64,000 nt of DNA from Calditrichota bacterium (lineage in GTDB: Bacteria; Calditrichota; Calditrichia; Calditrichales; Calditrichaceae): NCBI GenBank assembly GCA_013151275.1, contig JAADIP010000158.1, positions 1,622 through 65,621 on the forward strand, given 5' to 3'. Each line of letters begins with the position of its first letter. Positions within the stretch are counted from its first letter, which is position 1. The notes beneath the pieces are model-generated. The model was given only the letters and a program-made list of their open reading frames with translations. It made no database searches and was not told the DNA's origin. Position numbers and translations under genes: made by a program. Below, piece by piece: positions 28,597-37,200 of the stretch.

Positions 28597-29395
28597 GACG
28601 TTTATTATTATTGTTTTTTTTCTGCTTGTTTTTTCCGAAACAAAGGCGCAGATTATCCCGAACTTTGAGGATGACCTTTATTCAACTTTTTCACTCACAA
28701 AATCGCTCGGAAAACAGATCATCCGACCGCAGAGCGGAGTATTTTGGGCTGGGAGCGGAATTCTGGTCTCTTCGCTGTTCGATCGTTCTCTGCGGAAAAT
28801 TGCGCAAAAAAACAGGTCTTCCTTAAACGACCTGATTTTCAAAACAGACCGCTTTTACGGCGAAAAAAATATTTTATTGCCAGTAAGCGCCGGACTTTAC
28901 ATCGCCGGATTGGCGGCAAACCAACCTTATCTCAGAAAATTGGGCTTAAAATCGACGCAGGCGCTGATATTCACCGGACTGTTAACCATAGCGACCAAAG
29001 AAATACTCGGAAGGGCGCGCCCTTTTCAGGACAAGGGTCCTTTTAAGTTTAAACCGTTTTCATTTCAGGAACAATGGCGTTCGTTTCCTTCGGGACACGC
29101 CGCTTTAAGTTTTGCCTTTTCCACGATTATGGCTAAATCGGTTAATAATATTTTCTGGAAAATCGGATGGTACGGCGCGGCTTTTACCGTCGCCGGCGCG
29201 CGGATGTACAGGGACAAACACTGGCTGAGCGATGTTTTAGCCGGCAGTCTGGCAGGCTGGTCTGTGGCGACGTTTGTGTGGAATTTTGACGAAAATTCAA
29301 AGGATAATTCGGGGGATGCCCGTGCGCTGCCTTCGCTGAATATCGGCTATTCCTTAAGAGGCGATTTGACGCTCAATTACACTCTGACCTTTTGA
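28577..29395 (+). CDS. PAP2 family phosphatase
   Basis: KEILGRARP, SFPSGH, ARMYRDKHWLSDV catalytic motifs; N-terminal signal-like segment. Confidence 0.9.
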   Translation: MLRSGRRTFIIIVFFLLVFSETKAQIIPNFEDDLYSTFSLTKSLGKQIIRPQSGVFWAGSGILVSSLFDRSLRKIAQKNRSSLNDLIFKTDRFYGEKNILLPVSAGLYIAGLAANQPYLRKLGLKSTQALIFTGLLTIATKEILGRARPFQDKGPFKFKPFSFQEQWRSFPSGHAALSFAFSTIMAKSVNNIFWKIGWYGAAFTVAGARMYRDKHWLSDVLAGSLAGWSVATFVWNFDENSKDNSGDARALPSLNIGYSLRGDLTLNYTLTF

Positions 29396-29471
29396 CCGCA
29401 GATGACCACAGATGACCGCAGATTAAGCTGATTACACAGATTGCGCTGATTGAATTGACGGTTTTTTGATT
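29393..29471 (+). repeat. Dispersed repeat starting at the PAP2 stop codon: (TGACC(A/G)CAGA)3 then TTAAGCTGA TTACACAGA TTGCGCTGA
   Basis: 29403-29471 matches the reverse complement of 34140-34208 at 67 of 69 positions (manual alignment). Confidence 0.93.
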
Positions 29472-29761
29472 TTTAGTGCTTAAATAAGAGAATTAGTTTC
29501 ATTTGCAATTATTAGTTTAATTTATTTTCCGTGAGCTTTGTGAATTCTTTGTGTTTTCTGTGGTTATTATTCCCTGCTGATTAAGTGGAGAGTTTTTTAA
29601 TTTTCAGCGCTTAAAATCAGGAAGATTTGATTCTGTTTCAATTCCGATTTTAAATTTAATTTGCCGTATTCTTCTTTATTCTCTTTATGACTGTTTTGAG
29701 TCATTGCGATTAATTTTTTACTCCCCCCCGAAAACTGCGTTCTCCATATCCGGAAAGTTTT

Positions 29762-33767: not shown

Positions 33768-34197
33768 TGTTCCGTCATTTCGAACGAAGAGAGAAATCTT
33801 ATGATTACGACAAAAGAAAAAGATTTCTCCTCGCTGCGCTCGTCGAAATGACAAATACAGACCTTTTAGAGTGCACACAGTAATTGAAATTGAAAAATCT
33901 TATTTTACGCGTTAAGAATCAAAAAACCGTCAATTTAATCAGCGCAATCTGTGTAATCAGCTTAATCTGTGGTCCGGAATCAGCGTAATCTGTTCCGTCA
34001 TTTCGAACGAAGAGAGAAATCTTATGATTACAACAAAAGAAAAAGATTTCTCCTCGCTGCGCTCGTCGAAATGACAAATACAAACCTTTTAGAGTGCACA
34101 CAGTAATTGAAATTGAAAAATCTTATTTTACGCGCTAAGAATCAAAAAACCGTCAATTCAATCAGCGCAATCTGTGTAATCAGCTTAATCAGTGGTC
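33768..34197. repeat. 223-bp tandem duplication (33768-33974 and 33991-34197), each unit holding a 79-bp imperfect palindrome (33774-33852, 33997-34075)
   Basis: Arms GTCATTTCGAACGAAGAGAGAAATCT and AGATTTCTCCTCGCTGCGCTCGTCGAAATGAC; the two copies differ at only a few positions. Confidence 0.95.
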
Positions 34198-34205
34198 ATC
34201 TGTGG

Positions 34206-37200
34206 TCAATTGTCTAATACTTTTCGAACCGCTTTTGCTAACTCGGCAGCCACCACCGGTTTCATCAAAACCGATCTGATCCCGAAGTTTTTTTGCAAAT
34301 CTTCGGTCAGTTGCTGCCCGTATCCGGTAATCAGAATTATGGGTAAATCGGGGAAATGCCGGCGAATGAGTTGAGATAATTGCAAACCCGTCATATTCGG
34401 CATTGTTAAATCGGTAATCAGCAACTGATATTTATCCGGATTTTTACGTAATTTTGCAAGCACCTTTGTGCTGTCCAGGACGGTTGTTACTTTATAGCCA
34501 AAATAGGAAAGCATTTGTTTTTCCAGTTCAAGCACGCTCGGTTCATCATCTACCAAAAGGATATTTTCCTCGCCCTTTGGCATCGGAACCTTTTCTTTCG
34601 CTTCTTCAATTTGCCGCACATCGGCTACTGGCAAATACACATGAAAAACCGTGCCTTTGCCTTTTTCACTATACACTATGATTTCTCCGCCGCAATTTTT
34701 AACAATACCGTGAACAACGGAGAGTCCCAGCCCGGTTCCCTTGCCAACGCCTTTGGTCGTAAAAAAAGGTTCAAAAATACGTTCCATTACCCGGGGCTCC
34801 ATGCCTTCGCCCGTATCCGACACCGATAATCTTACGTAAGGTTGTTCATTCAAGCCCGGATGATGTTTGGCGGTAATTTCGTCAACCACGATTTGCTGTA
34901 ATGTTATGGAAAGTTGTCCTCCGTTTTTTTCCATAGCCTGATACGCGTTGGTGCACAAATTCATTAAAACCTGATGCATTTGCGCGGGGTCTGCCATTAC
35001 CGGCGGGCAGGATTTGTCGATTGATTTTTCTAAAATGATCGTGCTCGGGATGGAAGCCCGAAGCAAATTATAAGCTTCGGTTACAATGTGTTGCAGATAG
35101 ACCGGTTTTGGTTGATGATCGATTTGACGGGAAAAGGTTAAAACCTGCCGGATCAAATCTCTTGCCCGCAAAGCCGCTTTGATGATCTGGTTGGCATTGT
35201 CCTGTAATTTGGGGTCTTCAACAACGGACATTTTAATTATTTCGGCATACCCTAAAATCGGGGTTAAAATATTATTGAAATCGTGGGCAATACCGCCGGC
35301 AAGCGTTCCGATGGTTTCCAGCCGCTGGTTTTGATGCAACTGTTTTTGAAGCAGTTCTTTTTCTTCCTCCAATTTTTTGCGCTCTGTTATGTCTTCTTTA
35401 ATTGCAAGATAGTGTTGAATTTCTCCTTTTTCGTTTTTAATGGCGCTGATTCTCGCATACTCCCAAAAAAGAGTGCCGTCTTTTCTTTTGTTCAGCAATT
35501 CGCCCTGCCAGACCTTTCCGGAAGAAATGGTGCTCCATATTTCTTCGTAAACTTTTTGCGGCATTAAACCGGATTTCAAGATATTGGGTTTTTCGCCTAT
35601 TACTTCCGAATATTCGTAACCGGACACCTGCGTAAACTTCGGATTCACATATTCAATTTTCCCCTCAAGGTCGGTAATTATTACCGAAACCGGACTCTGC
35701 TCGATGGCGTCCGTAAGCTCTCTTAATCGCTCCTCCACCCGTTTTTGTTCGGTGATATCCTGAGCAAGGGCAATGACGACATTCTGCCCGAAGTACTGAC
35801 CTTTATAAAGACGCACATTTTTCGGAAAAATTTCTCCGTTGGAACGACGTCCCCAAAATTCGAATTGCTGCGGTTCGCCCTGTAAAGCCTTCCGAAAATG
35901 CTCGAGTACTTTATTCATATCGTTTTTCCCTGGAGCGGCTACATCAACCGGAGTTTTTCCGATAAAATAACTGCGCGGATAGCCGTACATTTTTTCCGCG
36001 CCTTCATTCACATCCAAAAAGCTGCCGTCTTCCGCCTGAATATAAATGGCTTCTTTTACGCTGTTGAAGAGTCCCCGATAGCTGGCTTCGCTTGCTTTAA
36101 GAGCTTCTTCGAATTTTCTCTTTTCGCTGATGTCCCTGTTTATTCCCACAATAGCCGCCGGTTTTCCCTCCGAATCGTGCATCAGACCAATGGACATGTC
36201 AATGACAAGTTCTTCGCCTTGTCTGTTAAATTGAATTACTTCGCCGCGCCAAAATCCCTTTTCCGTCGCAATCTTACGAATGCGCAGCCGTTCTTCTTGT
36301 GTCATGCGCATTTTTACGATTTCATCGATCCTTTTACCCAAAACCTCTTCCGCCTTCCAGCCGTACAGTTTTTCCGCGCTGTTATTCCAATAGGTAATCC
36401 TAAAGTTTAAATCCGTGGCAAGAATAGCGTCCTGCGCCGCCGCGAGCAACTGGTTTTGATAAAGAATCTGTTCTTCTTTTTCTTTTTGTTCGGTAATATC
36501 TTCCACGGTGCCTTCAAAATAAAGCAGGTTTCCCGCCGAATCTTTAACCGCCCGCGCCTTTTCGCGAACCGGGATCGGAGAGCCGTCTTTTTTACGCCAT
36601 ACCGACTCATGGACAATAAATTCATCCGTGCTCATTACCCTTTCGATGAATTCGAGTCGGTTTTTTTTGTGGTAATATCCTTCTCTGTCGATATCACGCT
36701 TCTTTAAATCTTCCAGCGAATCAAATCCCAACATTTTAATCAAAGCCGGGTTGGCGATAATAACTCTTCCGTCCAGGGTGGAGCGATAGATGCCGAAAGG
36801 CGAATTTTCAAAAATCGTGCGATACCTGTATTCGCTTTCCTTTAATTGTTCCTCCATTTTAAAACGCTGTAATTCAACCCCTACCCGATGAGCAAAAATT
36901 TCCAGAACATTCCTTTTCAAGGTCGCGTTTTTTATTTTGGATCTGGAAAGAGCTACGAGAATTCCGATAACGCTTCCGTCGGGTTTTCTTAAAGGGGTGC
37001 CGATGTAACCTTCGATGTTCAACGTTTTTAACAGATTATCCCCGGCAAAAAGTTCGGCTGTTTTTTCAGGATAGACACGGGTTTTTTGTTTTACCACATT
37101 CTCGCAAGGTGTGCCTTTTAAAGCATATTCGTCGTTTTCCGCAATTTTTCCGTCGCCGTAACAAGCGACTATTTTAGCGCTTTCTTCCTTTTCGTTCACT

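Follow-up and report, generated by a model that had tools for sequence, protein, structure and literature searches.

The subject of this study is a pair of facing inverted repeats, and the dispersed repeat family to which they belong, in a 64-kb stretch of DNA (the window) from a Calditrichota bacterium, whose genome (G000 below) comprises 4.46 Mb in 259 contigs. At this locus a PAP2 gene and a hybrid histidine kinase gene converge on a two-component operon, and each of the two ends on a TGA stop codon that is also the first triplet of a repeat copy. The features are as follows, in nucleotide (nt) positions of the window.

28577-29395, forward strand: PAP2 gene, 272 amino acids (Pfam and open reading frame).
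29393-29395, forward strand: TGA stop of PAP2, which is the first triplet of the left repeat head (read from the sequence).
29393-29422, forward strand: left head, three TGACCRCAGA decamers that place TGA in all three reading frames.
29423-29458, forward strand: nonamer array TTAAGCTGA TTACACAGA TTGCGCTGA TTGAATTGA.
29393-29566, forward strand: complete composite unit, made of a 5' array, an internal hairpin with a T-run, an AT-rich core and an inverted 3' array ending ...TTCTGTGGTTA.
29567-29761, forward strand: second unit, partial and diverged, which occupies the remaining spacer up to the stop of the regulator (repeat finder, BLAST).
29762-30958, reverse strand: sigma54-type response regulator (REC + AAA+), a host gene outside the repeat (Pfam).
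30994-33519, reverse strand: FG-GAP/PAS sensor histidine kinase, 841 amino acids, a host gene (Pfam).
33768-34197, reverse strand: two tandem 223-nt composite units, each with an array module, an AT-rich module and a 79-nt palindrome.
33774-33852 and 33997-34075, reverse strand: the 79-nt palindromes GTCATTTCGA...TCGAAATGAC within the tandem units.
34127-34208, reverse strand: right arm, a two-decamer head followed by a nonamer array (repeat finder, alignment).
34206-34208, reverse strand: TGA stop of the hybrid kinase; the right head starts with this triplet.
34206-38744, reverse strand: PAS/GAF hybrid histidine kinase, 1512 amino acids (Pfam and open reading frame).

The layout given in the initial annotation stands in its main lines. 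The match of 67 of 69 positions between 29403-29471 and the reverse complement of 34140-34208 was reproduced, the start of each copy on the TGA stop of its neighbouring gene was confirmed from the sequence, and gene calls together with Pfam place the kinase/regulator pair between the two arms. The paired region extends to 29403-29484 and 34127-34208 (82 nt at 94% identity, repeat finder) and can be followed by BLAST to about 110 nt at 88%, with a longest perfect run of 51 nt. Two details needed correction. The TGACCRCAGA decamers number three in the left head and two in the right, so that the arms come into register only after a shift of 10 nt; and on the right side a 223-nt composite unit is duplicated in tandem (33768-33974 and 33991-34197, 98% identical), which gives the left arm two inverted partners. 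The match between the arms is far above chance, yet each of them is also 85-92% identical to dozens of other copies in the genome.

A genome-wide search for copies, which the initial annotation had proposed, places the arms as two members of a dispersed family that is partly associated with stop codons. BLAST of either arm against G000 returned 226 pieces on about 100 contigs. Defining a strict array as at least three CWGAT units at a spacing of 9-10 nt, we found 99 in G000 against none in shuffled sequence; 94 of the 99 are intergenic, and together they form 67 clusters. Alignment of 16 copies revealed common modules whose order and number vary. The full unit is about 174 nt long and consists of the TGACCRCAGA decamer head, a TTANNCWGA nonamer array, a small hairpin with a T-run, an AT-rich core and an inverted 3' array (...CTTTGTG...CTGTGGTTA), while the 79-nt palindrome is present in part of the copies. 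Units frequently stand in head-to-tail succession. Their ends read T(G/A)ACCRC...GYGGT(T/C)A and the arrays at the two ends pair; the next head usually abuts the 3' end, which leaves the true borders of the unit uncertain. The repeats also break assemblies, with many copies lying at contig ends, and can mislead the annotation of gene ends.

The family has a narrow distribution. We counted its diagnostic 15-mer CAGATTAANCTGATT 78 times in G000, 57 times in the metagenome-assembled genome (MAG) of a sister Calditrichota species (G008, about 93% nucleotide identity to G000), not once in seven other genomes of the genus, and at most once in each of 22 further relatives. Judged by these counts, the family is a lineage-specific burst of non-coding, modular, intergenic repeats. 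Its copies are not tied to one kind of gene end, 39 strict arrays following 3' ends and 46 following 5' ends, and the orientation of clusters is random with respect to the strand of the neighbouring gene (27 of 57) and without bias relative to local GC skew (26:31). This random orientation argues against a lagging-strand mechanism and against a general role in the mRNA of the upstream gene. The single-strand, skew-linked orientation of IS200/IS605-like elements was rejected as a model on the same 26:31 ratio.

Where the family does meet a gene end in the sense direction, it meets it with striking precision. We considered every open reading frame (ORF) of at least 100 amino acids, in a greedy ORF set, that has a sense array within 150 nt past its stop, which gave 25 genes. 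In 16 of these the core RACCRCAGAT starts 1-3 nt into the stop codon itself, an arrangement that we call a weld: the offset is 1 in 12 genes (T followed by GACC or AACC), 2 in three (TA followed by GACC) and 3 in one, and the remaining genes have offsets of 7, 8, 9 and 14, then 46-118. Under uniform placement within 150 nt, 16 of 25 has a probability of about 1e-21, and fewer than 1.2 welds would be expected by chance across the genome; the closest antisense array lies 41 nt from a stop. In three of the 16 welds the ORF reads through one or two units to an in-frame TGA, and at the other 13 the boundary is the native one. The period of 10 nt puts TGA in frames 0, 1 and 2 in turn. Because the head starts with a stop triplet of its own, it is the one kind of foreign sequence that can abut a last sense codon and leave the protein unchanged. 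One suggestion of the initial annotation was that the repeat targets TGA stop codons, or donates them, in sense orientation; at the level of the family this holds, for 16 of 25 genes and with orthologues in relatives that end at the same residue.

The evidence on the residue at which the proteins end comes from a comparison of the last 90 residues of 12 welded genes with five members of the genus that lack the family. The C-terminus falls at the same residue in 5 of 5 relatives for DnaA, for the welded gene on contig C221 and for that on C226, and in 4 of 4 for that on C199. Welded proteins with variable tails differ from their relatives by 0-9 residues at the end. PAP2 ends on the same residue, F, in relatives G003 and G006, whose tails read LNLR(F/V)(N/K)F against ...LTLNYTLTF in G000, similar but not identical, and the tail of G004 is more divergent, with R as its last residue. 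The stop of the C221 gene is TAA or TAG in all five relatives and the TGA of the head in G000; going by this alignment, the head there has replaced the ancestral stop triplet. In a quarter of the clusters the head lies exactly at the position of the ancestral stop; the other three quarters are not at stop codons. This is a clean and quantifiable case in which a repeat replaces the stop codon of a gene and leaves the protein untouched, and the C-terminus is preserved in all five genes for which conserved orthologues allowed a check.

The inverted arrangement of the arms invites a different interpretation, in which the pair is a working recombination substrate and the two-component operon is flipped, or carried as cargo, as an invertible switch or a composite element. 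The perfect run of 51 nt would suffice for homologous recombination, and neither arm has a closer match in the genome than the other arm (96%, where other copies reach 92.5% at most). The comparison of gene order nevertheless speaks against it. DsbD, MatE, PAP2 and the convergent regulator and kinase are kept in identical order and orientation in G004 (a complete genome of 4,978,541 bp) and in G006, neither of which has family arrays here, and the regulator orthologues that occupy the same place are 70-72% identical; the G003 contig ends right after PAP2, so that only the DsbD-MatE-PAP2 part is visible, again without repeats. In G008, which carries both repeats, the locus is colinear and the repeats sit on the same two stop codons in the same orientation, with shorter heads (two decamers at the PAP2 site, one at the kinase site) and a single 223-nt unit. 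The inversion or mobilisation that the initial annotation had offered as an alternative is therefore not supported: the operon has the same site and orientation whether or not the repeats are present.

The content of the segment points the same way. The seven flanking and internal genes include no transposase, integrase or invertase by Pfam, no target duplication was found, and the arms are 82-nt non-coding arrays rather than the ends of an insertion sequence. Within 12 kb, the arms at 29.4 and 34.2 kb are the only facing pair of strict arrays in the assembly, and no such pair encloses a transposase; a single facing pair is about what chance would give for 67 clusters in a genome of this size. 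A second pair of arrays at a similar distance, 4.5 kb apart on contig C199, faces outward. We therefore regard recombination between the arms as highly improbable and already largely refuted. The arms are probably independent copies of the family in an incidental arrangement, a judgement that we make with the moderate confidence we give to our preferred explanation as a whole: each copy is in the sense of one of two convergent genes, and the copies accordingly face each other. The 4.7-kb operon between inverted repeats would then be an ordinary one, with two dispersed copies that happen to stand on either side of it.

Some further features of the window may be recorded here. A third family member (23045-23152, forward strand, BLAST) runs only from the T-run to the 3' array, with 79% identity to the left unit. 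It stands in the spacer after a 306-residue ORF (22013-22933), where a different short-unit array (TTGATAA TTGATGA TTGATGA TTTATGA TTTGCGA TTGATAA, 22931-23000) comes right after the TAA; this spacer thus combines two array types, the short-unit array and then the 3' half of a family unit. The sigma54-interaction regulator of the operon has 398 amino acids and stops after the AAA+ lid, with no C-terminal HTH_8 domain by Pfam, and its orthologues in G004, G006 and G008 align through residue 398 of 398. Outside G000 and G008, conservation of the sensor kinase in the G004 and G006 orthologues is confined to its C-terminal half (about residues 471-838), at 48%; the N-terminal FG-GAP sensor part is unmatched there.

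A gene partner of the family was sought by profile. G000 holds a single PDDEXK_3 gene (PF13366, GxxExxY type) in a genome-wide search (C200:15660-16055, E = 1.4e-39). Two direct copies of the head (...GTCTTAACCGCAGATGAAYGCWGATTAAATGATTTCGCTGATT) bracket this gene; over 40 nt these heads share 90-92% identity with dispersed members of the family, and a TGA within the array downstream serves as the stop of the gene's own ORF. The orthologue in G008 is arranged likewise and is followed by a full hairpin (GTCAGAACCGCAGAT...ATCTGTTCTGAC). Of 31 relatives, 30 have PDDEXK_3 genes, and the 14 genes that we inspected are flanked by array hairpins whose unit sequence is specific to each gene. The dispersed family is probably made up of orphan copies of those arrays around the PDDEXK_3 gene; the dispersed orphan copies carry a second, different 3' array. 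The nuclease gene is also the only gene found closely bracketed by family heads: genome-wide searches, limited to Y1_Tnp, PDDEXK_3 and 23S_rRNA_IVP, revealed no transposase gene bracketed by family arrays. The PDDEXK_3 nuclease would then be the best candidate for spreading or maintaining the family; the link between them is a physical one only.

Two other candidate partners were rejected. The three Y1_Tnp genes of G000, which resemble the tyrosine transposases associated with repetitive extragenic palindromic (REP) sequences (REP-associated tyrosine transposases, RAYT), are each flanked by unrelated short palindromes or hairpins, and the three four-helix-bundle genes (23S_rRNA_IVP, PF05635) have other types of array, heptamers and similar, at their flanks. 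The latter genes, at C30:7665-7982, C26:124-432 and C209:3820-4128 in G000, each have a tandem array of their own on the 5' side, built of GTGATGA/GTGACAAA/GTAACAAA units, of GGGTTAAG/GGGTATAA units or of AATGAATA units.

The 174-nt unit at 29393-29566 folds back on itself as a single long hairpin, its 5' arrays pairing with its 3' array (-44.7 kcal/mol, z = -2.75); a comparison of the two strands gave -43.0 kcal/mol for the sense and -21.6 for the antisense. Both arrays are present in 26 genomic copies, and in every one of these the sense strand is the more stable (-40.0 against -27.1 kcal/mol), whereas 115 control spacer windows have a mean sense-antisense difference of -0.25, and G-U pairs make up 21% of the pairs in sense folds against 9.5% in antisense folds. 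A fold that is specific to the sense strand points to a single-stranded sense form, whether RNA or DNA. A transcript that includes a welded copy would carry a long hairpin starting at its stop codon, and such a hairpin could act on the stability, processing or termination of the 3' end.

Scans of the locus narrow the kinds of element that the hairpin resembles. There is no Rfam match at E up to 1 in 29300-34300. An intrinsic (Rho-independent) terminator was rejected, as a consensus scan gave no terminator-like site in either arm, and a promoter scan of the arms gave only weak sigma70-like matches, on the antisense strand. Likeness of the units to Rho utilisation (Rut) sites, to CsrA sites and to DnaA boxes was considered and dropped, as their composition or motif does not fit.

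The regular phasing of the units prompts one to ask if the arrays are instead binding sites in duplex DNA for a chromosomal or regulatory protein, kept near gene ends as domain boundaries, sites of bending or blocks to read-through, and are neither selfish nor active in RNA. CWGAT is strictly phased at 9-10 nt, one helical turn, and the phased motif is not confined to Calditrichota. A search with a 23-nt degenerate nonamer array, for which we estimate about one match by chance, returned 25 loci outside that phylum, in Bacteroidota, Ignavibacteriota, Desulfobacterota, Nitrospirota and Campylobacterota; the hosts are Chryseobacterium (five genomes), Ignavibacteria, Bacteroidales, Chitinophagales, Saprospiraceae, Desulfamplus, Desulfobacterales, Nitrospirae and a Campylobacterales MAG. 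On the other hand, strand-specific pairing rich in G-U would be meaningless for duplex DNA, the number of copies and units varies freely between the sister species, seven genomes of the genus lack the family, and the analysis turned up no candidate protein that would bind the arrays. We consider duplex binding sites to be an improbable account of the arrays.

The arrays outside Calditrichota mostly take the form of a compact hairpin, headed for example by TGTCTGAA(C/T)C(A/G)CAGAT. One of them, at about position 7226 of L122 (the Campylobacterales MAG, which comes from the same dive series as G008), is a compact hairpin of CAGATTAAACTGATTACACAGAT units behind a terminator-like hairpin; it could have come by horizontal spread, or be an artefact of binning between the MAGs of a single study.

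How copies reach the stop codon can be approached by comparing the sister species. Orthologous G008 sites that have the family keep the weld and vary in the number of units. More generally, G000 and G008 differ in that units or modules have been gained or lost, or in that a spacer is exchanged in its entirety, between one stop codon and the gene next to it. At the welded genes of contigs C86 and C199, G008 has no family sequence and has TGA at the same position, and both of the G008 sites read TGATCA; as a target sequence TGATCA is a lead only, with two instances and no match in more distant relatives. The C199 spacer of G000 (about 94.6-94.9 kb) is filled with repeats in place of 134 nt of unrelated sequence in G008. 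On its other strand this spacer supplies a TAA, and the convergent gene there is eight residues shorter than in G008.

It is conceivable that such sites are filled by active homing to stop codons, in which an enzyme, for example the array-flanked PDDEXK_3 nuclease acting via break repair, inserts an element with a defined 5' end and its own stop triplet precisely where the last sense codon meets the stop. Several observations fit this scenario: the complete head at almost every weld and the confinement of offsets to 1-3 nt, the two sites that are filled in G000 and family-free in G008 and that both lie at stop codons with TGATCA in G008, an independent welded site in G008 (L060) without a match in G000, and the nuclease gene itself, whose own ORF ends within an array. 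A DNA enzyme, however, cannot see reading frames, and T(G/A)(A/G) triplets in the 644 kb of spacer outnumber true stops by about 20:1 on our estimate. Moreover, the two polymorphic sites differ by exchange of the entire spacer and not by an interruption of it, no target duplication was found, and three quarters of the clusters lie away from stops. We judge homing to be unlikely, albeit the main rival, and its fullest form to be less likely again; in that form the array-bracketed PD-(D/E)XK nuclease would drive insertion of hairpin units between the last sense codon and the stop, each unit would bring its own stop triplet and so spare the protein, and the strand-specific hairpin left behind, starting at the stop codon, would alter the fate of the mRNA. 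If this is true, the family would be a mobile element with a target set by translation and not by DNA sequence, and it would give the very large GxxExxY protein family its first function.

The explanation that we favour as a whole, and hold to be probable with some reserve, is that the copies are independent members of the family that become welded through turnover of spacers and are retained at stops. In spacers invaded by the family, insertion or rapid repeat-driven turnover would proceed up to the coding sequence and no further, and a head with its own stop triplet could take the place of the native stop. The junction would then be frozen by selection, because the head supplies the only stop of the gene. 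Applied to this window, PAP2 and the hybrid kinase, which converge on the two-component operon, each carry a welded copy in their own sense.

Several points weigh against this explanation or against parts of it: (i) A comparison of about 50 G008 loci with G000 found no clean pair of filled and empty sites and no target-site duplication. (ii) Erosion by random deletion would not be an obvious way to keep the head complete at nearly every weld. (iii) A role in the mRNA of the upstream gene cannot hold for most copies, the orientation of clusters being random overall. (iv) The PDDEXK_3 gene is present in nearly all of the relatives surveyed, and the family is expanded in two genomes only. (v) The 26 copies with the more stable sense strand are related and are not independent events, so the asymmetry may come from one founder, and it could equally reflect single-stranded DNA.

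The family is a tractable case of a widespread class, characterised by a fold on one strand, by phased CWGAT in at least five other phyla and by a physical link to PDDEXK_3/GxxExxY genes. The mechanism of the weld and the roles of the hairpin and of the nuclease are proposed here as inferences. A search of the available literature revealed no paper on array-hairpin repeats or on a link between repeats and GxxExxY genes, and nothing relevant on repeats in Caldithrix.

Among known systems, the family shares with the REP sequences and bacterial interspersed mosaic elements (BIMEs) of enterobacteria, which are associated with RAYT transposases, a high copy number, an extragenic location and a make-up of a few modules that vary in combination and form tandem clusters. 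Liang, Rudd and Deutscher reportedly found in 2015 that many REPs of E. coli lie within 15 nt of a stop codon and then lower expression via ribosome stalling. REPs are single palindromes of 20-40 nt with a GTAG/CGTC head (PMC3733652). Unlike them, the head of the present family overlaps the stop codon itself, and the Y1/RAYT-like genes of G000 lack family flanks.

[quoted passage not shown] The family resembles MITEs in its small size, absence of coding sequence, multiple copies and 5'-3' pairing, as well as in carrying stops in all frames and in its lineage-specific burst. In MITEs the terminal inverted repeats are defined, and there are target duplications and a parent insertion sequence. 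By contrast, the ends of the family are arrays of short sub-repeats, its units often stand head to tail, and no parent insertion sequence was found in the searches with the three profiles named above. The family is thus a kind of dispersed intergenic repeat of an array-hairpin class.

The closest published analogue of the head is the TAACTGA heptamer repeat of marine Beggiatoaceae, a short, tandem, mostly intergenic direct repeat that provides stops in three frames in one orientation (MacGregor 2015, PMC4679880). In 13 cases these repeats overlap the upstream gene's stop codon, and their distribution across phyla is patchy (PMC4679880). Both families consist of short tandem intergenic units with stops in three frames that overlap upstream stop codons, here with 94 of 99 arrays intergenic and 16 of 25 genes welded. 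The present family differs from the TAACTGA repeats in its units of 10 and 9 nt, in forming one arm of a 174-nt hairpin unit, and in its association with stop codons.

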